64,000 nucleotides of DNA from Mobula hypostoma (taxonomy: Eukaryota). Each line of letters begins with the position of its first letter. Within the stretch, counting starts at the first letter, position 1. A program made the translations under genes and the position numbers. Shown piece by piece: positions 2,771-64,000 of this stretch. The DNA is taken from assembly GCF_963921235.1 (NCBI RefSeq), contig NC_086097.1:167464001-167528000 (forward strand), read 5' to 3'. Under the pieces are notes generated by a model that saw only the letters and a list, made by a program, of their open reading frames with translations, was not told the origin of the DNA and made no database searches.

Positions 2771-3705
2771 GGTCAGGCATCAGATCTCTTGATGGAAGAG
2801 CATTTTGGAGGTAGTGATCATAACCCCATCTCCTTTGGCACAGTGCCGGAGAGGGATAGGAGCAGACAATTTAGGAAAACATTTAATTAGGGTAGGGGGA
2901 AATATGATGCTATTAGGCAGGAACTTGGGAGCATAAATTGGGTGCAGATGTTCTCAGGGAAATGCGCAGCAGAAATGTAGCAAACTTTCAGGGAATATTT
3001 GCATGGCGTTTTGCATAGGTATGTTCCATTGAGGCACGGAAAAAATGGCAGGGTAAAAGAACCATGCTGTACAAGGATGTGGAAAATCTAGTTAAAAAGA
3101 AAAGAACAAAAGGTTCAAGAAATTAGTTCATTACAAGTTTGCCAGGAATGAGCTTAAGAATGAAATTAGGAGAGCTAGAAGGAGACAAGAGAAGGCCTTG
3201 GCAAGCAGGATTAAGGAAAACTCCAAGGCATTTTACAAATATGTGAAGAGCAAGAGGATGAGCTGTGCAAGAATAGGACCAATCAGGTGTGATAGTGAAA
3301 ATGTGTGCATTGAGTCAGAGGAGGTAGCGGAGGTACTTAATGAATACTTTACTTCAGTATTCACCAGGGAAAAGGACCTTGGCAGTTGTGGAGATGACTT
3401 ACAGCGGACTGAAACACCTGAGCTGGAGCTTTTGAAAATCATTAAGTTAGATTAGTCACTGGGACTGGATGGGATGTACCCCAGGCTATTGTGGGAAGCG
3501 AGGGAGGAAATTGCTGAGCCTCTGGCAGTGATCTTTGCATCGTCAATAGGAATGGGAGGCGTACCAGAGGATTGGAGGGTTGCAAATATTTTTCCCTTGT
3601 TCAAGAAAGGGTGTAGCGATTACCCAGGAAATTATAGACCAGTGAGTCTGACCAGTGGTGGGCAAGTTGTTGGAGAAGATCCTGAGAGATTGGATTTAAG
3701 AGCAT

Positions 3706-5481
3706 TTGGAGAGACATAATCTGATTAAGCATAGTCAACTTGGCTCTGTCAAGGGCAGGTCGTGCTTTACAAGCCTGATTGAAATCTTTGAGGATATAAC
3801 AAAACACATTGATGAAGGTAGAGCAGCAGACAAATTTAATAAGTACTTTGGTTCTGTCTTCACTAGGGAAGACACAAGCAATCTCCCAGATGTATGGATG
3901 GGCCAAGGACATAGGGTAACAGAGGAACTGAAATGGATTGACATTAGGAAGGAAACGGTGATGAGTAGACTGATGGGACTGAAGGCTAACAAATCCCCAG
4001 GTTCAGATGGTCTGCATCCTAGGGTACTAAAGGAGGTGGCTCTGGAAATTGTGGATGCATTGGTGATCATTTTCCAATGTTCCTTAGATTCAGGATCAGT
4101 TCCTGAGGATTGGCGAATGGCTAATGTTATCCCACTTTTTAAGAAAGGAGGGAGGGAGAAAACAGAGAACTATCACCCTGTTAGCCTAACATCAGTAGTG
4201 GGGAAGATGCTAGAGTCCATTATTAAAGATGAAATAGCGGCATATCTTGATAGCAGTGATAGGATTGGGCCGAGCCAGCATGGATTTACCAAGGGCAAAT
4301 CATGCTTGACTAATCTATTGGAGTTTTTCGAGGATGTAACCAGGAAGATAGACACGGGAGATCCAGTGGATGTGGTGTACCTTGACTTTCAGAAGGCATT
4401 TGATAAGGTACCACATAGGAGATTGGTGGGTAAAATCAGAGTTCATGGCATTGGGGGGAGGATATTGACATGGATAGAAAACTGGTTGGCAGATAGCAAG
4501 CAAAGGGTAGCAGTGAATGGGTGTTTCTCAGAATGGCAGGTGGTGACTAGTGGGGTGCCACAGGGCTCGGTATTGGGACCACAGCTGTTTACGATTTACA
4601 TCAATGATTTAGAGGAAGGCATTGTGAATAACATCAGCAAGTTTGCTGATGATACTAAACTGGGTGGCAGTGTGACATGTGATGAGGATGTTAGGAGAAT
4701 TCAAGGTGACTTGGATAGGCTGGGTGAGTGGGCAGAAACTTGGCAGATGGCGTTTAATGTGAATAAGTGTGAGGTTATTCACTTTGGGAGCAAGAACAGG
4801 AAGGCAGATTATTATCTGAACGGTGTGGAGTTAGGTAAGGGAGAAATACAAAGAGATCTAGGAGTACTTGTTCATCAGTCTCTGAAGGTGAATGAGCAAG
4901 TGCAGCAGGCAGTGAAGAAGGCTAATGAAATGTTGGCCTTTATTACAAAGGGAATGGAGTACAAGAGCAAGGAAATTCTTCTGCATTTGTACAGGGCCCT
5001 GGTGAGACCACACCTGGAGTATTGTGTGCAGTTTTGGTCTCCAGGGTTAAGGAAGGACATCCTGGCTGTGGAGGAGGTGCAGCGTAGGTTCACTAGGGTA
5101 GTTCCTGGGATGTCCGGACTGTCTTACGCAGAAAGGTTAGAGAGACTGGGCTTGTACACGCTGGAATTCAGGAGATTGAGGGGGGATCTGATTGAGACAT
5201 ATAAGATTATTAAGGGATTGGACAAGATAGAGGCAGGAAATATGTTCCAGATGCTGGGAGAGCCCAGTACCAGAGGGCATGGTTTAAGAATAAGGGGTAG
5301 GTCACTTAGGACAGAGTTGAGGAGGAACTTCTTCTCCCAGAGAGTTGTGGAGGTGTGGAATGCGCTGCCTCAGAAGGCAGTGGAGGCCAATTCTCTGGAT
5401 GCTTTCAAGAAGGAGCTAGATAGGTATCTTATGGATAGGGGAATCAAGGGTTATGGGGACAAGGCAGGAACCGGGTATTGA
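3706..5481 (+). CDS. CR1 ORF2 reverse transcriptase frame (591 aa; first ~42 aa from copy A, the rest from copy B)
   Basis: KSPGSDG, YLDFQKAFDKV, GVPQGSVLGP, FADDTK, VRPHLEYCVQFW motifs. No APE domain, so it is not autonomous. Confidence 0.8.
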   Translation: MERHNLIKHSQLGSVKGRSCFTSLIEIFEDITKHIDEGRAADKFNKYFGSVFTREDTSNLPDVWMGQGHRVTEELKWIDIRKETVMSRLMGLKANKSPGSDGLHPRVLKEVALEIVDALVIIFQCSLDSGSVPEDWRMANVIPLFKKGGREKTENYHPVSLTSVVGKMLESIIKDEIAAYLDSSDRIGPSQHGFTKGKSCLTNLLEFFEDVTRKIDTGDPVDVVYLDFQKAFDKVPHRRLVGKIRVHGIGGRILTWIENWLADSKQRVAVNGCFSEWQVVTSGVPQGSVLGPQLFTIYINDLEEGIVNNISKFADDTKLGGSVTCDEDVRRIQGDLDRLGEWAETWQMAFNVNKCEVIHFGSKNRKADYYLNGVELGKGEIQRDLGVLVHQSLKVNEQVQQAVKKANEMLAFITKGMEYKSKEILLHLYRALVRPHLEYCVQFWSPGLRKDILAVEEVQRRFTRVVPGMSGLSYAERLERLGLYTLEFRRLRGDLIETYKIIKGLDKIEAGNMFQMLGEPSTRGHGLRIRGRSLRTELRRNFFSQRVVEVWNALPQKAVEANSLDAFKKELDRYLMDRGIKGYGDKAGTGY

Positions 5482-16830: not shown

Positions 16831-17482
16831 AATGTACCTGCTCAGATGCTTCTTAAATGTTGCTATTGTCCTTGCCTACACCACCTCCTCTGGCAGCTCA
16901 TTCCAAACACTAACTACTGTTTATGTGAAGAATTTGCCACTCAGATCTCCTTTTAATCTCTTCCATCTCACTTGAAGCACATGCCCTCCAGTTTTAAACA
17001 CCAACAAACAAACACTGGCCATCCACCCTTCATGATACCATACAAGTCTGTCCTTCACTCGGGGGGTCTAAAGATTGCTAATCTACCCAGTCAAATGTTG
17101 TGTGTGTTAAAATAAGTTGTTGCAACACTGCCAAAATCTGACCTTGCTTTACTTTTCATAATGTTCATCACAAAATTTCAATGGGAATTTTGCACAAATT
17201 CACAGGTTGTGTAGAAAGAGCTTATCACCCAAGACAACAACTTAACTAGACTGATTAATGGGACACTCAAATATTTCCATTAACAAATCAGTGTAATATA
17301 AAGCCATCTTGATCAATCATGAGTCATCAACTCTTTTAAATTTATTAACAATGAGGCTGTTTGTAATGGCCAGAATCTATCCCCATAACATAAGATGGCA
17401 TCTCAGTTTCTCAGGGTGATTTGCTTTCTCTTATTGAGGTACACCTGTCATTCCCGAAGCACATAGAGACAGAAAGTAGCCA

Positions 17483-18585
17483 ACACACACACAAAATGCT
17501 GGAGGAGCTCAGCAGGCCAGGCAGCATCTAGGAAAAGAGTACAGTCAATGTTTCGGCCTGAGACTCTTCAGCTGGACTGGAGATAAAAAGCTGAGGAGTA
17601 GATTTGAAAGGTTCCTCTTGTTCTCACCTACAACCCCACCAGTCACCACCGCTTCCAGCACATATTTCTCCAAAACTTCTGCCCCACCACCAAGCACATC
17701 TTTCCCTCCTTCCCCCACCCCCCATTTTCTGCAGGGTTCACTCCATACGCAGCTCCCTTGCCTATTCGTCCCTCCCCACTGATCTCCCTCCTGGCACTTA
17801 TCCTTGCAAGCGGAACAAGTGCTACACGTACCCCTACACCTCCTCCCTCACTATCATTCAGGGCCTCAAACAGTCCTTTCAGGTGAGGGGACACTTCACC
17901 TGTGAGTATGTTGGGGTCATATACTATGTTCGGTGATCTCGGTGCAGCCTACTGTATATTGGTGAGACCCAACGTAGAATAGGAGACCACTTCAACGAGC
18001 ACCTACGCTCCATCCAGCAGAAAAAGCGGGATCTCCCAGTGGCCACCCATTTTAATTCCACTTCCCATTCCCATTCCAATATGTCCATTCATGGCCCCCT
18101 CCATTGTTGGGATAAGGCCACACTTAGTTTGGAAGAACAACATCTTATATTTCATTTGGGTAGCCTCCAACCTGATGGAATGAACATTAATTTCTCAAAC
18201 TTCCGGTAATGCCCCCCCGCTTCACCATTTCCCATCCCCTTTTTCCTCTCTCACCTTATCTCCTTGCCCGCCCATCACCTTCCTCTGGTGCTCCTCCTCC
18301 CTTTTCTTTCTTCCATGGCCTTCTGTCTTTTTCACCAATCAACTTCCCAGCTCTTTACTTCATCCTTCTCCCTCCAAGTTTCACCTATCACCTTGTGTTT
18401 CTCTTTCTCCTGCTCCCCCTTTTAAATCTACTCCTCATCTTTTTTCCCCAATCCTGCTGAAGGGTTTCAGCCTGAAACGTTAACTGTACTCTTTTCCATT
18501 GATACTGCCTGGCCTACTGAGTTCCTCCAGCATTTTGTGTGTGTTGCTCAGATTTCCAAGATCTGCAGATTTTTTCCTGTTTGTT
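17483..18585 (+). mobile_element. 5'-truncated Neptune-type PLE with a short inverted pLTR arm (17483-~17611)
   Basis: PGTYPCKRNKCYT linker and GIY-YIG remnant to ~18209; pLTR with a degenerate HHR at ~18450-18487; imperfect TSD AGAAAGTAGCCA/AGAAAATAGTCA. Confidence 0.85.
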
Positions 18586-25525: not shown

Positions 25526-27950
25526 CATAGAACATAGAATAGTACAGCACAGTACAGGCCCTTCGGCCCACATTGTTGTGCTGACACTCAAACCCTGCCT
25601 CCCATATATCACCCTGCCTTAAATTCCTCCATATACCTGTCTAGTAGTCTCTTAAATTTCACTACTGTATCTGCCTCCACCACTGACTCAGGCAGAGTAT
25701 TCCACGCACCAACCACTCTCCAAGGAAAATTCTTTCCTCTAATATCCCCCTTGAACTTCCCACCCCTTACCTTAAAGCCATGTCCCCTTGTATTGAGCAG
25801 TGGTGCCCTGGGGAAGAGGTGCTGGCTATCCACTCTATCTATCCTCTTAATATCTTGTATACCGCTATCATGTCTCCTCTCATCCTCCTTCTCTCCAAAG
25901 AGTAAAACCCTAGCTCCCTTAATCTCTGATCATAATCCATACTCTCTAAACCAGGCAACATCCTGGTAAATCTCCTCTGTACCCTTTCCAATGCTTCCAC
26001 ATCCTTCCTATAGTGAGGCAACCAGAACTGGACACAGTACTCCAAGTAAGGCCTAACCAGAGTTTTATAGAGCTGCATCATTACCTTGCAACTCTTAAAC
26101 ACTATCCCTCGACTTATGAAAGCTAACACCCCATAAGCTTTCTTAACTACCCTATCTACTTGTGAGGCAACTTTCAGGGATCTGTGGACACATACCCCCA
26201 GATCCCTCTGCTCCTCCACACTACCAAGTATCCTGCCATTTACTTTGTACTCTGCCTTGGAGTTTGTCCTTCCAAAGTGTACCACCTCACACTTCTCCGG
26301 GTTGACCTCCACCTGCCACTTCTCAGCCCACTTCTGCAACTTATCAATGCCTATCTGCAATCTTTGACAATCCTCTACAACACCACCAACCTTTGTGTCG
26401 TCTGCAAACTTGCCAACCCACCCTTCTACCCCCACATCCAGGTCGTTAATAAAAATCACGAAAAGTAGAGGTCCCAGAACAGATCCTTGTGGGACACCAC
26501 TAGTCACAACCCTCCAATCTGAATGTACTCCCTCCACCATGACCCTCTTCCTTCTGCAGGCAAGCCAATTCTGAATCCACCCTGCCAAACTTCCCTGGAT
26601 CCCATGCCTTCTAACTTTCTGAATAAGCCTACTGTATGGAACTTTGTCAAATGCCTTACTAAAATCCATGTAGATCACATCCACTGCACTACCCTCATCT
26701 ATATGCCTGGTCACCTCCTCAAAGAACTCTATCAGGCTTGTTAGACATGATCTGTCCTTCACAAAGCCATGCTGACTGTCCCTGATCAGACCATGATTCT
26801 CTAAATATCCTTATATTCTTATAAGGATATCTCTAAGAATCCTTTCCAACAGCTTTCCCACCACAGACATAAGGTTCACTGGTCTATAATTACCCAGACT
26901 ATCCCTACTATCTTTTTTGAACAAAGGGACAACATTCGCCTCCCTCCAGTCCTCCAGTACCATTCCCGTAGACAACGAGGACATAAAGATCCTAGCCAGA
27001 GGCTCAGCAATCTCTTCCCTCGCCTCGTGGAGCAGCCTGGGGAATATTCCGTCTGGCCCCTGGGACTTATCCGTCCTAATGTATTTTAATACTCCAACAC
27101 CTCTTTTCCCTTAATATCAACATGCTCCAGAACATCAACCTCATTCATATTGTCCTCACCGTCATCAAGTTCCCTCTCATTGGTGAATACTGAAGAGAAG
27201 TATTCATTGAAGACCTCGCTCACTTCCACAGCCTCCAGGCACATCTTCCCACCTTAATCTCTAATCAGTCCTACCTTCACTCCTGTCATCCTTTTGTTCT
27301 TCAATTGAAGAATGCCTTGGGGTTTTCCTTTACCCTACTCGCCAAGGCCTTCTCATGCCCCCTTCTTGCTCTTCTCAGCCCCTTCTTAAGCTCCTTTCTT
27401 GCTACCCTATATTCCTCAATAGACCCATCTGATCCTTGCTTCCAAAACCTCATGTATGCTGCCTTCTTCCACCTGACTAGATTTTCCACCTCACTTGTCA
27501 CCCATGGTTCCTTCACCCTACCATTCTTTATCTTCCACACTGGGACAAATTTATCTCTAACATCCTGCAAGAGATCTCTAAACATCGACCACATGACCAT
27601 AGTACATTTCCCTGCAAAAATGTCATCCCAATTCACACCCGCAAGCTCTAGCCTTATAGCATCATAATTTGTCCTTCCCCATTTAAAAATTCTCCAGTCC
27701 ACTCTGATTCTATCCTTTTCCATGATAATGTTAAAGGCCAGGGAGCGGTGGTCACTGTCCTCCAGATGCTCACCCACTGAGAGATCTGTGACCTGACCCG
27801 GTTCGTTACCTAATACTACAAATTTTCTAGATCTAGTATGGCATTCCCCCTAGTCGGCCTGTCAACATACTGTGACAGGAATCCATCCTGGACACACTTA
27901 ACAAACTCTGCCCCGTCTAAACCCTTGGAACTAATCAGGTACCAATCAAA
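25526..27950 (-). mobile_element. CR1 (APE end to 3' tail) nested in an older CR1 fragment (~25420-28110)
   Basis: ORF 25839-26762 (YMDFSKAFDK, GVPQGSVLGP, FADDTK) and ORF 27301-27777; TSD GTTAAA (25520-25525, 27951-27956). Confidence 0.9.
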
Positions 27951-28104: not shown

Positions 28105-28808
28105 TGGTTCAAATAGTTCAAATCAATATCAGAAAATATATACAGTATACAACCTGAAATTCCTAATCTTCGCAGACATCGATGAAACAGAAAAAAACCT
28201 GAAGACTGAATGACAGAAACATCAAAACCCAAGCCCCCTCCCCCTCCCAAGGACAAGCATCAGCAGAAGCATCAATTCCCCCCTCCCCCACCATGCAAAC
28301 AATAGCAATAGCCCCCAAAGAGACTTTGATCTCGAGTCCTTCAAAAACTACAATCCATCGTTACACTTTTTAGGAAGGTCCTCTCTCACTAGCGAGAGGG
28401 AGAAAGGTTGCCCCTGCGGCAACGAGAGCGGGAGAACACCAACTCACTGTATCAATGTTGCTATCTTCTGTGTTGTTTCTCCAAGTACCCAACTTGTGGA
28501 CCAACAGACACCCAATCACCATCAAAAAGACAGAGAGAGAGAGAGGGGCTTTCTTCCAACAGCAGTGCACACTGCCTGTTGCCTTATGTTTCAGTCTCCC
28601 ATGATTCTTCAGTCGGGGACATCGGCAGGGAGCCGGGTCATCTATGAGGCTGCATTCTGAAAGCACACGTCTTCAGCCCGCACGGCGAGTTCAAGAATCC
28701 ACTGCTCATGGAGAACCGTAGTTTGAACTGCAGCTGTTGATCACAGACTCTGACATGGCCCCAGCCACCTTGAAAAGATCTACAAAAACCTCAGGTGCCA
28801 TTTTTTTT
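28105..28808 (-). mobile_element. Probable non-coding LINE-derived element
   Basis: On the minus strand it starts AAAATGGCACC and ends in a TTTGAAC-type tail resembling the Rex1-like tail at ~49910-49990. No coding remnant seen. Confidence 0.35.
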
Positions 28809-30575: not shown

Positions 30576-30760
30576 AAAAACAAAAAATACTGGAGGAACT
30601 CTGCAAGTCAGGCAGCATCTATGGAGAGAAATAAACAGTCAACCTTTCAGACTGAGACCCTTCATCAGGACAGTTTATTCCTCTGCATAGGTGGTGCCTG
30701 ATCTGATGAGTTCCTCCAGCATTTTGCTCTGGATTTCCAGCATCTGCAGAATCTCTTGTG
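30576..30760. mobile_element. Fold-back HHR mini-element inside a V-SINE (~30400-30830, minus)
   Basis: The inverted arm contains an HHR (minus GTC-CTGATGA-agggtctcagtct-GAAA) and is followed by a sense pLTR tail. Confidence 0.7.
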
Positions 30761-31418: not shown

Positions 31419-31847
31419 AGAGTAAAAGCAGTAGGAATTTGAAACGCTCACGAGCGAGACAGTACCTGCAGAAAGAATCCACTACCCTCGCTGTGTGTCT
31501 CTACACAGTTATGTACCAGGTTAAGCAACTTCTCAAAAATCACCTGAGGCAGATGCTTCTTCCAGGGCTTTTAATGAGATTTCGGGCTTGTGAAAAGATG
31601 ATGCTGTTTCAAGGACAAATAAAGAGTGGATGGAGATGTGTATCTTTCCACCGTGTGCTTCAAATTGGATCAAAACTAGCGTGCACAGGAAATGTTACAA
31701 AAAACAGCTTACATATCGGAAGTGAAGGTCAAACAAGATGTACTGTGCCTCAGGAATCCAGAATAAAGAGAAACAGAGATAATATTTCAGGACAAACATG
31801 ATTCATCATAACTAGAAAGAGAGAAAAGTGGAACCTTTAAAATGGTT

Positions 31848-32025
31848 TACAGATGCTGGAATCTGGAGCAAAACCATGAACTGCTGGAGGAAATTGGATG
31901 GTCAACATTTCAGGTCAAGACTCTTCACCTGGACTGGCCAGAAGCTGGTCTCAGCACCCACTGTCCTTTTCCCTCTACAGATAATGAACGGCCCGCTGAG
32001 TTCCTCAAGCAGCTATTTTTTTTTT
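31848..32025. mobile_element. Degenerate fold-back HHR mini-element
   Basis: Inverted arm CAGATGCTGGAATC...TTTCAGGTCAAGACTCTTCACCTGGACTG, then a sense tail GCTGAGTTCCTC. Confidence 0.6.
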
Positions 32026-33447
32026 TGAAAGAGAGAATTGCCCTGGTGCAGGATCTTGACCAGCAATTGTGAACATTTTTCCCCTCCACAAATGCTGCTT
32101 CCCCTCCAGCAGTGTACTTCTCAGAAAACAAGTTAGTTTTAATTAACAGGTGAAAGGATGAACAGTCAGAGGCAGCTTACAGTAAATTTAACTTGTTACC
32201 TCACTTTCCAAGCTTAGGTGAAGCTTCCTCAACTCTTGTCTCTCCTTCCATTGATTCTGCCTGACCATCCCTGACTTCTATCAAACCTTACCCTGACCAC
32301 AACCTTGTTCTGATACTCTCAAACTGTCAAGTGTTCCTTCACTTCCAGCCTCAACTGACTCTCTCTTGCCCTGAATTTATCTCATGCCACTTGTTCCCAC
32401 TTTGGCAGACTGTCATTTCTGAGGAGCCCTCACACCTGGTCACCATGGTCCACTATGTAAAGATTCACTCCTTGCATCGGTTTTCTTCCATCCTTCCCTT
32501 GTGTAACGTGTACAGGAATATTTCTCTGATGCAGAGTCCATCTACTGAGAATGATTTTCAGTTCAATGTCCGCCTGTAGTTACACAGAAATACAAAATTC
32601 AGTCAGATTCCCACACAGTGTGTAGAACAAGCTTGTGATCAGTACCAGAACTTCCCACTGGAAACAGGCAGACCACTCATTTCCATGCCAGCGAAAGGAA
32701 AACAAAGGTCCAATATTCTATTTGCCCGCAGGTTTTGTTTCATGATGAGATTTCAACAGGCCAGAGAAATCCATCAAGGTAAAAGATTTTATGGACACGC
32801 TACATTAAAAAAAACACAACTGTCATCATATGAGATTAACATTTAAAATGCCTCACATTCAAAATGCAGGATATTTGCTTCTTTAAGCACATGCCCATAT
32901 ACACAGATAAAAATCAGTACGCAGAGCAGAAGTAATTTAATCTCTGATACAGGATCTCAAGCTGAAACATTGACTATCTCTCCACTGACTTTCTCTACCA
33001 GTTCATTTTTTGTTCCAGATCGCACCATCTGCAGCCTCTTGTATCTTCATAACTCTCGGTACTTCCCAGTCCACCTTGTTGTAGGCTTGCACTTTATTGT
33101 CTGCACTTTTACTGTGCTGCAACACTTCTGCACTCTGTTATTGTTTTACCATGTACTACCTCAATGTATCATTGTAACAAATAGATCTGTGTGGATGGTA
33201 AGCAAAAGATGTACCTTGAGATTTACAACTTACAGATCTAATTTACCTGTTTTCAGCTGGGTTCCTCTGTAATGCCAGTCTCACCCTGGTCCTTTGTCCA
33301 GCCTTTTCTACCCCAGCCTATTCCAAAGACTAGTGGAGACAAAAAACCTGCAGGTGCTAGAAAGCCAAAACATAAAGTAGTTTTGTGACATACATCAAAG
33401 TTGCTGGTGAACGCAGCAGGCCAAGCAGCATCTATAGGAAGAGGCGC

Positions 33448-33483
33448 AGTCGACGTTTCAGGCCGAGACCCTTCGTCAGGACT
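33448..33483 (-). ncRNA. Minimal type I hammerhead ribozyme (left pLTR)
   Basis: Minus strand AGTC-CTGACGA-AGGgtctcggCCT-GAAA-CG-TC-GACT. Confidence 0.85.
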
Positions 33484-33781
33484 AACTGAAGGAAGAGTGA
33501 GTAAGGGATTTGAAAGCTGGAGGGGGAGGGGGAGATGCAAAATGATAGGAGAAGACAGGAGGGGGAGGGATAGAGCCGAGAGCTGGACAGGTGATAGGCA
33601 AAAGGGGATACGAGAGGATCATGGGACAGGAGGTCCGGGAAGAAAGACAAGGGGGGAGGGGGTGACCCAGAGGATGGGCAAGAGGTATATTCAGAGGGAC
33701 AGAGGGAGAAAAAGGAGAGTGAGAGAAAGAATGTGTGCATAAAAATGAGTAACAGATGGGGTACGAGGGGGAGGTGGGGCC

Positions 33782-36485
33782 TTAGCGGAAGTTAGAGAAG
33801 TCGATGTTCATGCCATCAGGTTGGAGGCTACCCAGACGGAATATAAGGTGTTGTTCCTCCAACCTGAGTGTGGCTTCATCTTTACAGTAGAGGAGGCCGT
33901 GGATAGACATGTCAGAATGGGAATGGGTTGTGGAATTAAAATGTGTGGCCACTGGGAGATCCTGCTTTCTCTGGCGGACAGAGCGTAGATGTTCAGCAAA
34001 GCGGTCTCCCAGTCTGCATCGTGTCTCACCAATATATAAAAGGCCACATCGGGAGCACCGGACGCAGTATATCACCCCAGTCGACTCACAGGTGAAGTGA
34101 TGCCTCACCTGGAAGGACTGTTTGGGGCCCTGAATGGTGGTAAGGGAGGAAGTGTAAGGGCATGTGTAGCACTTGTTCCGCTTACACGGATAAGTGCCAG
34201 GAGGGAGATCAGTGGGGAGGGATGGGGGGGGACGAATGGACAAGGGAGTTGTGTAGGGAGCGATCCCTGCAGAATGCAGAGAGAGGGGGGGAGGGAAAGA
34301 TGTGCTTAGTGGTGGGATCCCGTTGGAGGTGGCGGAAGTTACGGAGAATAATATGTTGGACCCGGAGGCTGGTGGGGTGGTAGGTGAGGACCAGGGGAAC
34401 CCTATTCCTAGTGGGGTGGTGGGAGGATGGAGTGAGAGCAGATGTACGTGAAATGGGGGAGATGCGTTTAAGAGCAGAGTTGATAGTGGAGGAAGGGAAG
34501 CCCCTTTCTTTAAAAAATGAAGACATCTCCCTCGTCCTAGAATGAAAAGCCTCATCCTGAGAGCAGATGCGGCGGAGACGGAGGAATTGCAAGAAGGGGA
34601 TGGCGTTTTTGCAAGAGACAGGGTGAGAAGAGGAATAGTCCAGATAGCTGTGAGAGTCAGTAGGCTTATAGTAGACATCAGTGGATAAGCTGTCTCCAGA
34701 GACAGAGACAGAAAGATCTAGAAAGGGGAGGGAGGTGTCGGAAATGGACCAGGTAAACTTGAGGGCAGGGTGAAAGTTGGAGGCAAAGTTAATAAAGTCA
34801 ACGAGTTCTGCATGCGTGCAGGAAGCAGCGCCAATGCAGTCGTCGATGTAGCGAAGGAAAAGTGGGGGACAGATACCAGAACAGGCACGGAACATAGATT
34901 GTTCCACAAACCCAACAAAAAGGCAGGCATAGCTAGGACCCATACGGGTGCCCATAGCTACACCTTTAGTTTGGAGGAAATGGGAGGAGCAAAAGGAGAA
35001 ATTATTAAGAGTAAGGACTAATTCCGCTAGACGGAGCAGAGTGGTGGTAGAGGGGAACTGATTAGGTCTGGAATCCAAAAAGAAGCGTAGAGCTTTGAGA
35101 CCTTCCTGATGGGGGATGGAAGTATATAGGGACTGGACATCCAAGGTGAAAATAAAGCGGTGGGGGCCAGGGAACTTAAAATCATTGAAAAGTTTAAGAG
35201 CGTGAGAAGTGTCACGAACATAGGTCGGAAGGGATTGAACAAGGGGTGATAAAACAGTGTCGAGGTATGCAGAAACGAGTTCGGTGGGGCAGGAGCAAGC
35301 TGAGACAATAGGTCGGCCAGGACAGGCAGGTTTGTGGATCTTGGGTAGGAGGTAGAAACGGGAAGTGCGGGGTGTGGGAACTATAAGGTTGGTAGCAGTG
35401 GATGGGAGATCCCCTGAGCGGATAAAGTCGTTGATAGTGTGGGAGACAATGGCCTGGTGCTCCTTAGTGGGGTCACGATCGAGGGGTAAATAAGAGGAGG
35501 TATCCGCGAGTTGTCGCTGTGCCTCGGCAAGGTAGAGGTCAGTACGCCAGACTACAACAGCACCCCCTTTATCAGCGGGTTTAATAATAAGGTTAGGATT
35601 AGTGCGGAGGGAGTGGAGAGCAGAGCATTCCGAAGGAGTGAGGTTGGAATGGGGACAAGGTGCGGTGAAGTCGAGACGGTTGATGTCCCGTCAGCAGTTG
35701 GCAATAAAGAGATCCAGAGCAGGCAGAAGACCAGAGCGGGGTGTCCATGAAGAAGAGGAGGGTTGAAGACGGGAGAAGGGGTCATCGGTGGGGGTGGAAG
35801 AGTCCTTGCCGAAGAAGTAGGCTCGGAGACGGAGACGGCGGAAGAAAAGTTCCGCATCATGGCGAACACGGAACTCGCTGAGGTGTGGGCGAAGGGGGAC
35901 AAAGGTGAGGCCCTTACTGAGAACAGAGCGTTCTGCCTCCGACAGTTGAAGGTCGGAGGGGATGGTAAAGACCCGGCACGGATGAGAGCTGGGATCAGAG
36001 GGGGAGGGGGGAGGCTGGGGGTGTCAGTGGAGAGGGGAGGGTTGGGGTGAGAGGAAGATGGAGCCTCTGAGGGCCCAGGAGTTGACGGTGGGATCTGAGG
36101 AAGACGGGGCTGCGGAGTGGTGGTGGGGGAAGGGGAGGCGGGAGTCACAACAGCAGCACATAAAGACCCGGCCTGGAGTTCAAGGCTGGAGTCGCAGTTG
36201 GTGGTTGTGCAATCGCTGTGAAGGTGTCCATGGTCTTTGCTGGAGTCCGGGTTTTGAATATGTCCTGAGGTGTTGGAGCCACCGAGATCAATGGCAGGGG
36301 CCGCAATTGAAAGTTCATGCCTGCTAGCGTCGGGGCCGGCAGGCTCTGGAGTCCGTAGATGTAAGATCTTGCGATCTTTGCCTAACATGACAAAGTCAAA
36401 AAAACGGCGATTGCAGGCGTGAATCCGACGGAGGATGAAATAACGGGTAGGACCATTACAGACGGCGAAGAAAGTCTGTAAAGTA
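33782..36485 (-). pseudogene. PLE RT + GIY-YIG ORF, left arm (longer, 5'-truncated, frameshifted)
   Basis: IKPADKGGAVVV, FYLLPKIHK, GRPIVS, DVQSLYTSIP, GVAMG, RYIDD, VIY...YIG motifs. Frameshifts in G-runs near 34225 and 36000, and a stop near 35690. Confidence 0.9.
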
Positions 36486-36595
36486 GAGCAGAGTTCCCCT
36501 CTACCACCACTCTGCTCCGTCTAGCAGAATTAGTCCTTACTCTTAACAATTTCTCCTTTTGCTCCTCCCATTTCCTCCAAACTAAAGGTGTAGCT

Positions 36596-37774
36596 ATGGG
36601 CACCCTTATGGGTCCTAGCTATGCCTGCCTTTTTGTTGGGTTTGTGGAACAATCTATGTTCCGTGCCTATTCTGGTATCTGTACCCCACTTTTCCTTCGC
36701 TACATCGACGACTGCTTTGGCGCTGCTTCCTGCACGCATGCAGAACTCGTTGACTTTATTAACTTTGCCTCCAACTTTCACCCTGCCCTCAAATTTACCT
36801 GGTCCATTTCCGACACCTCCCTCCCCTTTCTAGATCTTTCTGTCTCTGTCTCTGTCTCTGGAGACAGCTTATCCACTGATGTCTACTATAAGCCTACTGA
36901 CTCTCACAGCTATCTGGACTATTCCTCTTCTCACCCTGTCTCTTGCAAAAATGCCATCCCCTTCTCGCAATTCCTCCGTCTCCGCCGCATCTGCTCTCAG
37001 GATGAGGCTTTTCATTCTAGGACGAGGGAGCTGTCTTCATTTTTTAAAGAAAGGGGCTTCCCTTCCTCCACTATCAACTCTGCTCTTAAACGCATCTCCC
37101 CCATTTCACGTACATCTGCTCTCACTCCATCCTCCCACCACCCCACTAGGAATAGGGTTCCCCTGGTCCTCACCTACCACCCCACCAGCCTCCGGGTCCA
37201 ACATATTATTCTCCGTAACTTCCGCCACCTCCAACGGGATCCCACCACTAAGCACATCTTTCCCTCCCCCCCTCTCTCTGCATTCCGCAGGGATCGCTCC
37301 CTACACAACTCCCTTGTCCATTCGTCCCCCCCATCCCTCCCCACTGATCTCCCTCCTGGCACTTATCCGTGTAAGCGGAACAAGTGCTACACATGCCCTT
37401 ACACTTCCTCCCTTACCACCATTCAGGGCCCCAAACAGTCCTTTCAGGTGAGGTATCACTTCACCTGTGAGTCGACTGGGGTGATATACTGCGTCCGGTG
37501 CTCCCGATGTGGCCTTTTATATATTGGTGAGACACGACGCAGACTGGGAGACCGCTTTGCTGAACATCTACGCTCTGTCCGCCAGAGAAAGCAGGATCTC
37601 CCAGTGGCCACACATTTTAATTCCACAACCCATTCCCATTCTGACATGTCTATCCACGGCCTCCTCTACTGTAAAGATGAAGCCACACTCAGGTTGGAGG
37701 AACAACACCTTATATTCCGTCTGGGTAGCCTCCAACCTGATGGCATGAACATCGACTTCTCTAACTTCCGCTAA
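36596..37774 (+). CDS. PLE RT C-terminal half, Cys linker and GIY-YIG endonuclease (right arm, open but 5'-truncated)
   Basis: RYIDD, FLD, YYKPT, CKRNKCYTC linker (Neptune-like), GVIYCVRC...LYIGET, RFAEH, EQHLIFRL. The PLE-homologous frame begins ~36493. Confidence 0.9.
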   Translation: MGTLMGPSYACLFVGFVEQSMFRAYSGICTPLFLRYIDDCFGAASCTHAELVDFINFASNFHPALKFTWSISDTSLPFLDLSVSVSVSGDSLSTDVYYKPTDSHSYLDYSSSHPVSCKNAIPFSQFLRLRRICSQDEAFHSRTRELSSFFKERGFPSSTINSALKRISPISRTSALTPSSHHPTRNRVPLVLTYHPTSLRVQHIILRNFRHLQRDPTTKHIFPSPPLSAFRRDRSLHNSLVHSSPPSLPTDLPPGTYPCKRNKCYTCPYTSSLTTIQGPKQSFQVRYHFTCESTGVIYCVRCSRCGLLYIGETRRRLGDRFAEHLRSVRQRKQDLPVATHFNSTTHSHSDMSIHGLLYCKDEATLRLEEQHLIFRLGSLQPDGMNIDFSNFR

Positions 37775-38072
37775 GGCCCCACCTCCCCCTCGTACCCCAT
37801 CTGTTACTCATTTTTATGCACACATTCTTTCTCTCACTCTCCTTTTTCTCCCTCTGTCCCTCTGAATATACCTCTTGCCCATCCTCTGGGTCACCCCCTC
37901 CCCCCTTGTCTTTCTTCCCGGACCTCCTGTCCCATGATCCTCTCGTATCCCCTTTTGCCTATCACCTGTCCAGCTCTCGGCTCTATCCCTCCCCCTCCTG
38001 TCTTCTCCTATCATTTTGCATCTCCCCCTCCCCCTCCAGCTTTCAAATCCCTTACTCACTCTTCCTTCAGTT

Positions 38073-38108
38073 AGTCCTGACGAAGGGTCTCGGCCTGAAA
38101 CGTCGACT
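38073..38108 (+). ncRNA. Minimal type I hammerhead ribozyme (right pLTR)
   Basis: Stem I AGTC/GACT; core CTGACGA (38077-38083); stem II AGG/CCT; GAAA (38097-38100); palindromic ACGT stem III; GUC site with predicted cut after 38104. Confidence 0.85.
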
Positions 38109-38228
38109 GCGCCTCTTCCTATAGATGCTGCTTGGCCTGCTGCGTTCACCAGCAACTTTGATGTATGTTGCTTGAATTTCCAGCATCTGCAGAATTCCTG
38201 TTGTTTGCGTTTAAAAGTAGTTTTGTGA

Positions 38229-41265: not shown

Positions 41266-42059
41266 TCTCACATATCTTTATGTAACAACCTTACAAATGA
41301 CTTCTTGTCTGTACCTGGAGTATTTCATTCAATTCTGTTTGCCTCCTTATAAGAAGTATGCAAAGGTTTTGGAGAGAATGCAGAGGAGGTTTACCGGGAT
41401 GCTGCCAGTATTAGAGGGCTTATCCTACAAGGAGAAGCTGGTCAAACTTTCGTTGTTTCCTGTGGAGCATTGGAGGCTGAGGGAAGATCTGATATAAATA
41501 TATAAAATTATGAGAGGCTAGATAGAGTTGACAACTGGTTTCATTTTCCCTGGATCAAAATGCCCAATTCTAAATGACATGCATTTAAAGTGAAAGGGGA
41601 AAGTTTAAAGGAGATATATAGGGCAAGTTTTCTTACACTGTCATGGTCCGGATCGGGGTCTCTTTAAACTTACCTTGTTTATGTTACGATCGGGACCGTT
41701 GATTCCCTGTTTTCCCGTGTCCCTCGACTTTGCTGATTAGAGGCAATTAATGCTCGGCTGAACCACTAGTTTATAGTCTCCGGCTTTCAGCAGTTTGAAG
41801 CGGGAGCGTCTGCAAAGTCACCAGAGGTACGGCATGCCAATGTCATCCGGCCGGAGCAAGCCTAGTCTCTGCCGAAGCGAGTGTCGGTAATTCGCCTTTT
41901 CCTCACCGGAGCAATCCTGTCCAGTTACCTCGCCAAAGTGAGCCTGCAAAGTTTCCTCACCGAGGTAGGTCCGTCAGTTAACCCGCCGGAGGGAATCAAG
42001 AACCGCTGTTTACTGTTCCCGGGCCAAGTCGAGAGCTCGCCACTACCCGGAGGTCCCAA

Positions 42060-42362
42060 GTACCACGTCCTGGCCCAGGTGGCATTCAAGCATCAAGTCA
42101 AGTCCTGGTCCTGGTGGCATTCTAGCACCAAGTTAAGTCCTGTCCCTGGCGGCATTCAAGCACCAAGTCAAGTCCTGGCCCTGGAGGCATTCTAGCACCA
42201 AGTCAAGTCCTGGCTCCGGCGGTATTCAAGCACCAAGTCAAGTCCTGGCCCTGGCAGCATTCTAGCACCAAGTCAAGTCTTGGACCTGGCGGCATTCTAG
42301 CACCAAGTCAAGTCCTGGCCCTGGTGGCTTCCCAGTTCTGAGTCAAGTCCTGGCCCTGGCGG
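42060..42362 (+). repeat. 35-bp tandem repeat, ~8 copies
   Basis: Unit CAAGTCAAGTCCTGGCCCTGGCGGCATTCTAGCAC, head-to-tail. Confidence 0.9.
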
Positions 42363-42497
42363 TCTGTGATTCCTGTCCTACCCCCTTGTCTGAATCCCTT
42401 CTCTGCCCCTCTCGCCTCTAGCCCTCATCTGTAGCCCTCGCCTGTCTTCGGTCTAGTTCTATCACCAGAACTAGATGGGTATTGTCTGGTGTGCTTT

Positions 42498-42855
42498 CAT
42501 GTTGGTCTTGTCCTGTCCTTGCCTCCGTGGGGTAAGTCTGGCCGTCTTGCCGTTGCCCCGCGGAGAGTCATGTCTTGTCTCGTCTTGCCCTCGCCTCCAT
42601 GGGGTAAGTCTGGCCGTCTTGCCGTTGCCCCGCGGAGAGTCATGTTTTGTCTTGTCTTGTCCTTCCCTCCGTGGGGTAAGTCAGACCATCTTGCCGTTGC
42701 AGAGAGTCATGTCTTGTCTCATCTTGTCCTCGCCTCCATGGCGTAAGTCAGGCCATCTTGCTGTTGCCCTGTGGAGAGTCATGTCTTGTCTCGTCTTGTC
42801 CTCGCCTCCGTGGGGTAAGTCAGGCCATCTTGCCATTGCCCCGCGGAGGGTCATG
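42498..42855 (+). repeat. ~72-bp tandem repeat, ~5 copies
   Basis: Unit CATGTCTTGTCTCGTCTTGTCCTCGCCTCCGTGGGGTAAGTCAGGCCATCTTGCCGTTGCCCCGCGGAGAGT. Confidence 0.9.
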
Positions 42856-43869
42856 AGTCCCAGCCTTATGTCCTGTACCCAAGGAGGGGTCCCGGCTCTC
42901 TGTTCTGTGTGCTTGCCCGGCCCTATGTTCTGTACCCAAGGAGGGGTCCCGACTCTGTGTTCTGTGTATGTGTCCATGGTTCCATGTACCTGCTCCCCGA
43001 GACCGAGGCTCTGTGTTCCTATGTTCCTCCTCTCCCTAGTCCATGTCATGTCCTTGCCTGGTTCTGGGGTCCGAACCCGAGGCAAGACCCAGGTACTGGG
43101 TCCTTGCCCAGTCTCTGGCTCGGAGTCCATACCCTAGCCTCTTCATGTCTCCTCTAGTTCTGGGAGCCGATTCCGAGTCCTAGCCCAGACCCTTTGTCCC
43201 AGCCTAGTCGTAGTCGTGAGTCCCTGTCCAGTTTGCTACTCCTGCTCCTGCCTTGCTCTCCTGGTATCGAACAATAAACTAAATCTAATTAACCTCACAA
43301 GATGTGCCTTGCATTTGGGTCCACCCTTGCTCCCTATGCCCCCGCCACTGTGACATACACAGAGAGTGGTAGGTGTCTGAAATGTGCTGTGGTGAAGCTA
43401 GTGGAGGCAAGCACAACCAAAGTGCTTAAAAGATTCCCTGATAGGTACATGAATATGCAGCGACTTGAGTACGGACGTTGTGCAGGCAGAGGGGATTAGT
43501 TCAGTTAGGCATTTAATTCGTTTGGTACAGCATTGTGGGCTGAAGGGCCTATTCTTGCACTGTACTATGTTCTATGTTCGCTGTCACTCTATCCTGATTC
43601 TCCTACCATCCAGCTACACCAAGGATCAGTTACAATAGGCAATTACCCTACCACCTCTCGCATCTTTTGGAATTAGGGAAAGACGAGAGTGCCATGGAGT
43701 CACAGGGAGAAGATACAAACTTCACACCAACAGCACCGGAGGTCAGGATTATACCAGGGTGGCAAGAACAGTGAAATGCAATGCCTGCTGTGATACTGTA
43801 CAACCTTACTACCTTTGACTCCCAATCCTGTCATCCAAGAAAAGCAAAAGCACACAGGACAATCAGCAG

Positions 43870-46930: not shown

Positions 46931-47059
46931 TAATAGATCAATGAATGCAGGTAGAGGGAGAGAGAAACAGACAAACGGTCAGGCTGACACAGGGAAAGGC
47001 AGCCAGAAATAAGGAAAAGAGAGAGATGACAACATACATCTACAGATAGAAAAAGGCAG

Positions 47060-47522
47060 GGAGATACAGACAGAGGGAGATACAGACAGAGGGAGATACA
47101 GACAGAGAGAGATACAGACAGAGGGAGATACAGAGAGAGAGATACAGACAGAGGGAGATACAGACAGAGGGAGATACAGAGGGAAATACAGACAGAGACA
47201 GATACAGACAGAGGGAGATACAGAGGGAGATACAGACAGAGAGAGATACAGACAGAGGGAGATACAGACAGAGAGAGATACAGACAGAGGGAGATACAGA
47301 CAGAGAGAGATTCAGACAGAGGGAGATACAGACAGAGGGAGATACAGAGGGAGATACAGACAGAGAGAGATACAGACAGAGGGAGATACAGACAGAGAGA
47401 TACAGACAGAGGGAGATACAGAGGGAGATACAGACAGAGAGAGATACAGACAGAGGGAGATACATACAGAGGGAGATACAGACAGACAGAGATACAGACA
47501 GAGCGAGATACAGACAGAGGGA
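47060..47522. repeat. Purine-rich minisatellite, ~16-bp unit GAGATACAGACAGAGG with 12-14 bp variants
   Basis: Directly visible. Confidence 0.95.
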
Positions 47523-48417
47523 AAAGAAGAGATGGAGCCAGACCGAAAAAGAAACACGGGCACAAGTTAAAGTTGTGAAATGTGGGTCAGAGTTGCCGCT
47601 GAAACATAAATGAGAATACTAAAATCAGCAAATCAGTGCAAATCTGAAACTATTCTGATAAAAGTGAAATTAGCTTTTCATAATTGCAAAAAAATCAAAA
47701 TTCATGCTTCACTGTTTTAATTACCATTGAACAGGAATTAGTGTTTTCATTAATGGCTGCTATAGTTCAATAATGCAGTTTCTGAAGCATAAATTAGTTC
47801 TGAAGAACATTATAGTTGACAATAGCCATTTAATTTCATGCAGCATGTAACCGAGATCAGTTTGTGTGTATTTCGGGAAATAAAGGTGCCTCGATGTGGT
47901 CATTATGTCATTGTGTCTGGTGTGCAAGGGCACCAGGTATAGAAACAAGTTGTTTCACAAGGTAGGGTGAACAAAATGGCGTTGGAGGTTTATGTGGCTA
48001 TAAATTTGTGCTGGGTATTCTATGTATTAGTCTGGCAACAGAAGAGAAAGAGCAGCACAAAGAGAGAAACAGTACGATTAGATTTGTAAAGTACCCTATC
48101 ACATTTCCCAGCAATGTTCCAAAGTGCTTTACATTTAATTCAAAGTGCTTTGAATTAAACTGACCGTTGTTATGTTGATGTAAACACAGAACTCAGTACA
48201 TCAAGTTCACAGAAACAGAATAAATAAACAGTTTGTATTTGGCAAGTCATTGAGGGAGAAACATTGGCTAAAACAGCAGAACATCACCCAGATCTTTAAA
48301 TAGAAGCTTGGGATCTTCAAATGTATCTGAACCCGAGGAATGGGCTGACAAGCCTTCTCTAAAATAAAAAACCTCAAGTTCTGTACCTTAGAAGATCCCT
48401 AAATATTTAAGTGCTAA

Positions 48418-58119: not shown

Positions 58120-59500
58120 TATCAAAGTCCGGTCCATGAAGTCTGCATTCCGGTTCACGGTCCGGTCCATGGACTCAGATCTCCGGGTCTTCCAGCTGTC
58201 CTTTGTTTCAGTTGGGTTAGGCACCTGATTCCCATCTTGGAGCTTGGAATATAAGTAGCCTTGGGGTCGCGTGTGGGCTGCTTGTTTGTCTTGTCAAGAT
58301 CCCCTGGGAGCAACCTGCCAGTGGAAGGCTAGAGTGGCCACTTGCCATCATTAGGCTGCGTTGGAGAACCACCATTTCATGGAGCCTTGCTGACGGTAGT
58401 CGTAGCGGTCTTTGCGGTATGGATTCGGCCGTTTCCTAGGCCAGCTGAGTGGCCGACAGCCACTCTGAGCTAGGTAAGGATCCAGCTGTTTCTGTAGCCA
58501 GCTGAGGTTGCTGGCCATAACTGCAACTCGGAGCAACCCCAATGCAGAGATGAAACTGTCTGTCGTTCTTCAGTGTTTGTCTCTTCTTGTCCTCGCCTCC
58601 ATGGGGTAAGTCAGGCTGTTCTGCCGTTGCCCTGCGGGGGGATCTGTCTTGTCTTGTCTTGTCCTCGCCTCTGTGGGGTAAGTCAGGCTGTTCTGCCGTT
58701 GCTCTGCGGGGGGGGGGGGACTGTCTTGTCTTGTCCTCACCTCTGTGGGGTAACTCAGGCTGTTCTGCCGTTGCCCTTCGGGGGGATCTGTCTTGTCTTG
58801 TCCTCGTCTCTGTGGGGTAAGTCAGGCCATTCTGCCGTTGCCTTGCGGGGGGCTGTCTTGTCTTGTCTTTGCCTCTGTCGGGTAAGTCAGGCCGTTCTAC
58901 TGTTACCCAACAGGTGGACCTGTCCCACCTTAGTATGGAGATAAAGTTGAGTCCTGGCTTGTCTAAGGATAAGTCCCGGCTCTATGTCTAAGTACTGTCC
59001 AGTCTCATGTTAGTGTCATGTTAAAGATCAGTCCTGGCTTTTCGAGGGATAAGTCCGGGCTTTATGTTAATGTACAGTTCCCAGTCTGTCTCCAAGCTCC
59101 AGCCTCCGAGTTATCAGCCTCCACATTCCAAGACCCCAGCTTCCAGCCTGCAGCCTACAGCCTCAAGACCCCAGCCTGCAGCCTCAAGCCTCAAGACCCC
59201 AGCCATGTCCTGTCCTGTAGCCATGTCATGTCCTTGCCTAGTTCTGGGGTCCGAGCCCGAGGCAAGACCCAGGTTCTGGGTCCTTATCCAGTGTCTGGCT
59301 CAGAATCAAAGCCCAGGCTCCTAGTTCATAGTTCCTCGTCCGGGTTCCCTGTCTAGTCCATGTCCTAGCCCGAGTCTGCGTTCTTGTCCCTGCTCCTCAT
59401 CTGTATCCTGTCACATCCCTAATCTAGTCAAGTCCTGTTTCTAGTACTTCAGTGTCTGTATCTTGTGTTTGGGTCCGTTCCCAGCACCCCAACTGTGACA
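58120..59500 (+). mobile_element. 1381-bp solo LTR related to 41639-43355
   Basis: 3' end TTTGGGTCC...CTGTGACA; decayed 5' end TATCAAAGTCCGG vs TGTCATGGTCCGG; TSD ATGGA/GTGGA; shared block 59222-59300 vs 43042-43120 and a shared GGGGTAAGTC array at 58575-58905. Confidence 0.8.
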
Positions 59501-63060: not shown

Positions 63061-63900
63061 TTGAAGTAATATGAAGGAAAACAATAACAGAAAGCAGAAT
63101 GAACTGTCACAGATACAGAGACAGTGCAGTGCAGGCAGACAATGAGGTTCAAACTCTAATGAGACAGATTGTGAAGTCATGAGTCCACCTAATTGTACTA
63201 AAGGATTGTTCAAGCAGCCACCGGTTGTGGATGAAGAGGATTGACAGCAGCTGGGCCCTAAAATTACCCATGGGTGGCCAGATGTGAAGAAGGATGTACC
63301 TGGCACGCTGGGTCGCATTGCTGAGCTGGAGATGTAGTGGGCTTAAATTGAAGAAACATCTAAGTAGGGGACTGCCCACCTGATGTCCCCTGGGAAGCAT
63401 CAGCCACCCACCAAGCCCCACTTCAACTTCTCTGCCCTATGCTATGCTGAGTTTGGATCTGCTTATCAAAGGGATTGAAACATCTGGTCCTATGAGCTTG
63501 AACCATTATAACAGTGGGATGGAAGCAATCCTTGAAACTGATGATATGTACTTACGGGTTTTTGTAGCCTAATGGGAGACAGGAGAGGACAAAATGTCCA
63601 AAGCACCTGTCTGATATTCCAGGTTCCAGCATCAGCAATGCCTTGCGTCTCCATGATCCCTCCGCTATTTCCAGGGCTACTTCCATTCATACACTGCAAT
63701 GCAGATTATCAAAACCTGAGGAATTATGAGCATTTAGTCCCATCCTTAATTTTAATTTCCTTCAGTTTCTCCCTCTCTTTAGACCATCGGTTTCCTAACA
63801 CACCTGAGGGATTTTTGCCCCCCACCCCACCCGCCTTTGTAAACACAATCAAATATCAGTGTTGTGCCTCCTCTTCAATCCTGGTTATAATATCAGCCGA

Positions 63901-64000
63901 CATACATCAAAGTTGCTGGTGAACGCAGCAGGCCAGGCAGCATCTATAGGAAGAGGCGCAGTCGACTAGTCCTGACGAAGGGTCTCGGCCTGAAACGTCG
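63901..64000. mobile_element. Young fold-back PLE mini-insertion (runs off the window)
   Basis: 63901-63966 is nearly identical to 33389-33454 and is followed immediately by the sense HHR. Confidence 0.85.
63968..64000 (+). ncRNA. Minimal hammerhead ribozyme (truncated by the window edge)
   Basis: Identical to 38073-38105. Confidence 0.8.

Follow-up and report, generated by a model that had tools for sequence, protein, structure and literature searches.

Motif and Host Element

The window, which is the whole 64,000-nt stretch of DNA analyzed here, carries at 38073–38108 a minimal hammerhead motif close to the end of a Penelope-like element (PLE) with RT and GIY-YIG domains (Table 1). On the plus strand, the motif runs in the order stem I 5′ strand, CUGACGA, stem II region, GAAA, CG, UC, and stem I 3′ strand. 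All hammerhead boxes—CUGANGA, GAAA, and UH—are present, and only CG separates GAAA from UC. The intact core (CUGACGA, GAAA, and GUC), the stem I of four base pairs, and the loop-less ACGU that an earlier note on this DNA had described can be read directly. By the established hammerhead numbering, the cut would fall after C38104 and the new 5′ end at 38105, the position that the note had rightly predicted.

The core followed by ACGUC is matched three times in the window and not once in any of 100 dinucleotide shuffles; the complete 36-mer occurs twice. The two further copies that the note had called identical differ in this respect: the one at 33448–33483 is identical but lies on the minus strand, which had been left unstated, and the one at 63968–64000 is partial, with 34 of 34 bases identical over 63967–64000 and the last three bases of stem I beyond the window. 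The left arm of the insertion to which this third copy belongs (63900–63966, minus strand) equals 38102–38168. At a distance of 25.9 kb, the copy at 63968 is the nearest, and in the window the sole, intact same-strand copy relative to the 38073 motif.

A search with Rfam gives no hammerhead match at E ≤ 5 in the window, and the motif lies outside the canonical type I class, which has a helix III with a loop; four weak Rfam matches elsewhere in the window are chance-like. The folding energy of the 36-mer is no better than that of its shuffles (z −0.37) and is therefore no evidence for the motif, so that the case for a hammerhead is made by motif, context, and comparison. Bare core boxes lacking the stems of the PLE family are also found at 28199 (plus strand) and 28612 (minus strand), possibly by chance.

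Table 1. Coordinates of the hammerhead motif, its copies, and the PLE insertions in the window
Feature	Position	Strand	Remarks
Minimal type I hammerhead motif	38073–38108	+	36 bases
Stem I	38073–38076/38105–38108	+	4 bp
Core CUGACGA	38077–38083	+	
Unpaired A	38084	+	After A9
Stem II	38085–38088/38093–38096	+	4-nt loop
GAA	38097–38099	+	
Palindrome ACGU	38100–38103	+	Loop-less
C17	38104	+	
Identical motif, opposite strand	33448–33483	−	Other arm of the 33388–38213 insertion
Third motif copy	63968–64000	+	Ends at window edge; right arm of small inverted insertion from 63900
Left arm of insertion	33388–36491	−	Longer 5′-truncated copy of the same PLE; ORF over several frames
Right arm of insertion	36492–38213	+	5′-truncated PLE copy: RT C-terminal half, linker, GIY-YIG, stop at 37774; then pyrimidine-rich pLTR, hammerhead, short end 38168, tail
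Tail	38169–38213	+	45 nt; one arm only
Left target-site duplication	33374–33387		14 bp (15 if next A counted)
Right target-site duplication	38214–38227		Identical to left
Short young-family copy	2666–2771	−	Tail, 12-bp duplication; 5′ end within about 1 nt of predicted cut site
Older-subfamily inverted insertion	17479–18583		Short end left, tail right; hammerhead cores mutated
Older small inverted insertion	30576–30760		Arm 5′ ends: stem I outer edge/about cut site
Older small inverted insertion	31846–32014		Same two 5′ end kinds, ∼20 nt apart; degenerate, read by eye

The 38073 motif follows the stop codon of the GIY-YIG frame by 298 nt, precedes the end of the element, and sits in the PLE terminal repeat (pLTR). 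The Pfam matches to RVT_1 and GIY-YIG lie in one frame, both slightly below the curated cut-offs. At E ≤ 1e−20, 111 relatives are longer than the query frame, the best being 54% identical. The linker has the form C-x4-C-x2-C, and C297, C302, and C305 are invariant in all 40 aligned proteins (39 of the 111 and the query). No viral relatives appear in the protein alignment, and the pattern specific to the window's PLE family has no match in metagenome or viral contigs. Further repeats share the window: tandem arrays at 42029–42857, 46980–47600, and 58557–58924 have units of 35, 72, and 16 nt, the 72-nt unit being found at two sites 16 kb apart, and other RT-encoding retroelement remnants (RVT_1) at 3700–5481 (plus strand) and 25839–26810 (minus strand) look CR1/L2-like.

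An RT with a C-terminal GIY-YIG domain and a CX2-5CxxC linker is described for the Neptune/Nematis PLEs (PMC8557442). The linker of the present element is of this type as judged by sequence, and the putative assignment to Neptune/Nematis draws on domain order and linker. The host is, to judge by the repeat landscape, probably a cartilaginous fish.

Stem II Register and Covariation

Relatives were taken from metagenomes (285 confirmed stretches, of which the best 79 distinct loci were used) and from six genome-collection loci—85 loci or 328 kb altogether—with a descriptor that demands at least 3 bp in stems I and II, an offset of stem II of 0 to 2, and 0 to 8 nt at stem III. The descriptor finds 24 matches. 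In 21 of these, stem III has no loop and GAAA and UH are 2 nt apart; the intervening dinucleotide is CG in 18 cases and TA, TG, and CA in one case each. The remaining three comprise two with a 4-nt palindrome, which are the two arms of one element, and a canonical one. Twenty shuffles as a control yield 0.45 descriptor matches per shuffle and no loop-less one. Alignment A2 (n = 17) consists of the window motif and 16 of the 24 matches; the others, namely five that are duplicates or second arms, the pair with a 4-nt palindrome, and the canonical match, were left out.

With an A unpaired after A9, 94.7% of the cells in A2 pair (slid controls at most 45.4%), both-side changes occur at 8 of 10 pairs, and all four pairs of stem I covary; the relatives represent few families, and because the descriptor itself requires stems I and II, covariation is partly there by construction, so that the figures speak for consistency more than for independent proof. 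In the register that has G38085–U38096 as its first pair, stem II is 97.1% paired in A2. This first pair is G-C in 16 of the 17 sequences and G-U in the window copy. The helix AGG/CCU, which the earlier note had proposed, is 58.8% paired, with its outer A-U pair in 1 of 17. The natural variant T38096C, which makes up 19 to 30% of the summed contig depth (a rough measure) in all four runs, turns G-U into G-C and keeps the G10.1 pair, and it would break the A-U pair of the AGG/CCU register. By covariation over the 17 motifs and by this variant, the proposed helix is off by one, stem II being formed by a bulged A and GGGU/GCCU. For the palindrome at 15.2/16.2, a double change is seen in just one of the 17 motifs (L080, where the motif lies 2.2 kb from its matched ORF), and the constancy of ACGU could stem from the needs of the core rather than from pairing.

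Same-strand pairs of descriptor matches are absent within each of the 85 loci. L028 and L035 have the motif upstream of a long ORF and direct repeats at the contig ends, as expected of tandem units. In L082:2187 and its inverted copy, stem III contains a palindromic insert of 4 nt and stem II measures 7 bp; L067 holds a canonical type I hammerhead with a 6-bp stem I. L080–L085 are six PLE loci of one assembly titled 'MAG: bacterium', which probably represent eukaryotic DNA in the bin.

The spread of the motif among relatives bears on whether it is of any importance for the window's PLE family or is merely a passenger of the pLTR. Of 31 related ORF ends with at least 250 nt downstream, 11 are followed by a strict core within 600 nt, and the other 20 lack one; in addition, proliferation is reported for Naiad and for most Chlamys PLEs although these have no canonical hammerheads, and the possibility of HHRs parasitizing PLEs has been raised (PMC8557442). 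A mere passenger is nevertheless highly improbable, given that the core is invariant and the stems covary between the window's vertebrate-type element and invertebrate relatives with ∼50% protein identity, and that the variants within the 36-mer fall at only three positions among those listed, two of them at CpG sites.

Inverted Insertions and Their 5′ Ends

The insertion at 33388–38213 consists of two arms, of which 33388–35059 and 36492–38168 are inverted with respect to each other and 98.7% identical. The left arm runs on to 36491, where it joins the right arm 5′-to-5′, and ends at 33388 without a tail. The motifs at 33448 and 38073 hence stem from a single insertion event, one in each arm, and lie on opposite strands, so that one RNA cannot carry both in sense. 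A transcript through the block would contain one sense motif and its perfect antisense, favoring a long duplex over a ribozyme dimer. The locus is not a source element because the start of the ORF is missing from both arms and frameshifts disrupt the left one. A tandem array with a hammerhead in each unit is absent from the window, the closest intact same-strand pair being the one 25.9 kb apart. The arms differ at 16 places in the inner 1047 nt and at none in the outer 630 nt (14 substitutions, nine of them non-synonymous, and two indels; P about 0.009 if uniform). This uneven divergence could reflect two template RNAs, conversion between the arms, or assembly polishing.

An inverted truncated partner and a one-sided tail are standard for EN+ PLEs (PMC8557442). 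The insertion at 33388–38213 resembles those described there in the inverted 5′-truncated 5′ partner, the tail at one end, and the CX2-5CxxC linker of Neptune/Nematis, but it differs by being without an upstream pLTR or partial tandem and by having a clear target duplication of 14 to 15 bp. PAc, a Poseidon PLE of Anolis carolinensis, shares the pLTR hammerhead and the presence of tailed and untailed ends; two nearby RT start sites explain the tail, giving rise to ends with and without it, and both DNA strands are primed (PMC11167929). PAc belongs to a different clade, the window element having the extra Cys linker, and its tail is 30 to 40 nt long compared with 45 nt here (PMC11167929). A search by title or abstract found no paper on PLE insertions with twin priming.

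For 12 5′ ends, a duplication or an inversion joint marks the boundary; of these, four lie within ∼7 nt of the outer edge of stem I, four within ∼3 nt of the cut site, and four elsewhere, in a sample that is small, read by hand, and biased to copies keeping the motif (it includes 2503–2613, 2666–2771, 30576–30760, 31846–32014, and 63900–64000). Three small inverted insertions have one arm for each kind of end, stem I edge and cut site. Altogether, five 5′-to-5′ inverted PLE insertions were noted in the 64 kb, namely 17479–18583, 30576–30760, 31846–32014, 33388–38213, and 63900–64000; in all four with both ends visible, one arm is short-ended and the other tailed, as read by eye.

Contigs show loose ends at 38073–38075 in four of four runs (X1: 285 and 125 contigs; X5: 218 and 86), a pile-up that is partly a conservation edge since the table is biased by subfamily divergence on either side of the motif. 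No loose end at 38105 is found among the matches listed. Transcript ends are absent from runs X9 and X15, whose contigs are of uncertain kind (in the case of X15 probably DNA). The joints 38103>38062 and 38104>38060 occur in single contigs of unstated kind and were not counted as evidence. A splice acceptor at the AG of the stem I start, after the pyrimidine tract, was rejected: the AG is not kept in relatives, and several window copies retain upstream bases.

These ends allow for a reading in which the hammerhead dimer acts as a pairing device: a dimeric PLE protein, priming both strands of the target, would hold two element RNAs together, one cut and one uncut, and the small inverted insertions would be fossils of dimer cleavage in vivo. 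The idea has a slim chance of being right; the 4-nt complementarity of stem I can join two cDNAs at these ends without cleavage. Folding back of a single cDNA via stem I was considered as a source of the small inverted copies and rejected, as it would leave the tail of the second arm at 30576–30760 unexplained. If true, the pairing device would supply the missing in vivo evidence of dimer formation and cleavage for PLE hammerheads.

Proposed Dimer Formation and Its Possible Role

The motif at 38073–38108 is a loop-less minimal hammerhead at the end of a PLE, of a kind already described. The min-HHR of metazoan PLEs, including Xena, Poseidon, and Neptune of fish, is likewise type I and without helix III and loop 3 (PMC4209133). 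Further shared features are the palindromic 15.2–16.2; the extra nucleotide between 9 and 10.1; the short helix I; the location in the pLTR, mostly as solo or opposite-strand copies; and the dimer model. The window copy features two differences compared with the min-HHR of PMC4209133: G10.1 pairs with U instead of C—the C being present in 19 to 30% of the family depth—and helix II has only 4 bp. The small PLE hammerhead variants that cleave as dimers share a palindromic, extremely short stem III, and a tandem layout is proposed to enable their cleavage (reviewed in PMC6765202). Non-LTR retrozymes also carry type I hammerheads, which are dimer-enhanced in amphibians and for which an origin from PLE pLTRs is proposed, but they are tandem arrays, and no tandem hammerhead unit lies in the window (PMC7229834; bioRxiv 10.64898/2026.07.22.740005).

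Stem III must come from two copies because A-C-G-U cannot close on itself without a loop. The statement of the earlier note that the motif probably needs to dimerize is well founded, but it is not new, being the published view of the min-HHR, which was defined on dimer reasoning and from which a loop-less descriptor was designed (PMC4209133). That minimal PLE hammerheads can cleave as dimers, as the note had held, agrees with the literature, where the activity is low (PMC4209133, PMC6765202): the Schistosoma monomer is inactive, and dimer and trimer constructs cleave weakly (PMC4209133). The tandem layout may be required for the hammerhead dimers of PLEs, according to the review (PMC6765202).

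Folding predictions for the lone motif give an inactive hairpin of −10.0 kcal/mol in which G5–G8 pairs with CGUC; two of its pairs were checked and have probabilities of 0.98 and 0.96. The predicted energies are −9.5 kcal/mol for the active dimer, −20.0 kcal/mol for two monomer hairpins, and −28.3 kcal/mol for a misfolded dimer, the nearest-neighbor models ignoring contacts within the core. Of the 17 motifs, 9 have this inactive hairpin as the dominant fold, and none has the active dimer as the predicted optimum.

The hammerhead of the anole PLE cuts only with protein added and is dispensable for insertion in vitro; unprocessed RNA is the main insertion substrate, core mutants insert normally, and no RNA reads end at the cut site (PMC11167929). 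Dimerization alone is unlikely to be the whole switch because this hammerhead requires protein for its cut. The disfavor of the active dimer in the predicted energies fits, in direction, with the protein need of the anole element.

The note had further proposed a switch that fires in transcripts with tandem pLTRs, or cleavage in trans with mini-element RNAs; the tandem-dimer idea had already been published in much the same terms (PMC6765202). In its strict form—dimerization of RNA alone as the trigger of cleavage, either within tandem transcripts or with abundant mini-element RNAs acting in trans—such a switch is improbable. It would explain why dimer and trimer constructs cleave and monomers do not (PMC4209133), and suitable partners could be supplied by a PLE family as abundant as that of the window, to which 102,745 contigs of run X1 align over 391 bases, with a stem I common to the PLE subfamilies. 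Against this stand the opposite strands of the arms at 33388–38213, to which the tandem version is inapplicable; the predicted energy of an RNA-only dimer, which falls short of that of two monomer hairpins by at least 10 kcal/mol; and the low dimer activity in the publications cited above. The shared stem I would in principle allow mini-element RNAs to pair in trans, but this is unsupported: cores are broken in most short copies of the window, with 3 of ∼20 other pLTR fragments retaining the core boxes and none of those three retaining ACGU.

The protein need of the anole hammerhead and the use of its unprocessed RNA as main substrate (PMC11167929) would also suit a role of the motif in RNP folding or as a binding site, in which protein shapes a single copy or uses an uncut one and dimerization is incidental. 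The loose contig ends just before stem I, found in all four runs, correspond to the whole uncut motif being kept. Such a protein-assisted monomer is still rather unlikely, since it is at odds with the inability of A-C-G-U to close on itself, with the palindromic 15.2/16.2 and loop 3 reported across metazoan PLEs (PMC4209133), and with the 4-nt palindromic insert in L082.

The reading preferred here, which is judged likely, is that self-cleavage by the motif is weak and takes place in a dimer in which two element RNAs swap strands, probably with the aid of protein, within multimeric transcripts that arise from source loci at other places in the genome. A single copy would fold into the inactive hairpin. 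In the dimer, the ACGU segments of two copies would pair to form a stem III of 4 bp, and each stem I would form between the copies. The PLE protein would probably be required for dimer formation. The dimer would likely serve in trimming or releasing element RNA, multimeric or read-through, that comes from tandem source loci, and the copies at 33388–38213 would then be by-products of one insertion and probably not the site of ribozyme action.

Loop-less dimer-type hammerheads in PLE terminal repeats, including those of fish Neptune, were described in 2014 (PMC4209133), and the motif adds little to this. By title or abstract, no published example of a PLE hammerhead from a cartilaginous fish was found, and the primary dimer study (Lunse et al.) or supplements may list one. 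The in vivo role of PLE hammerheads is still described as open (PMC8557442, PMC11167929), and the value of the locus lies in the material that it offers: a young, very abundant PLE family with identical intact copies.
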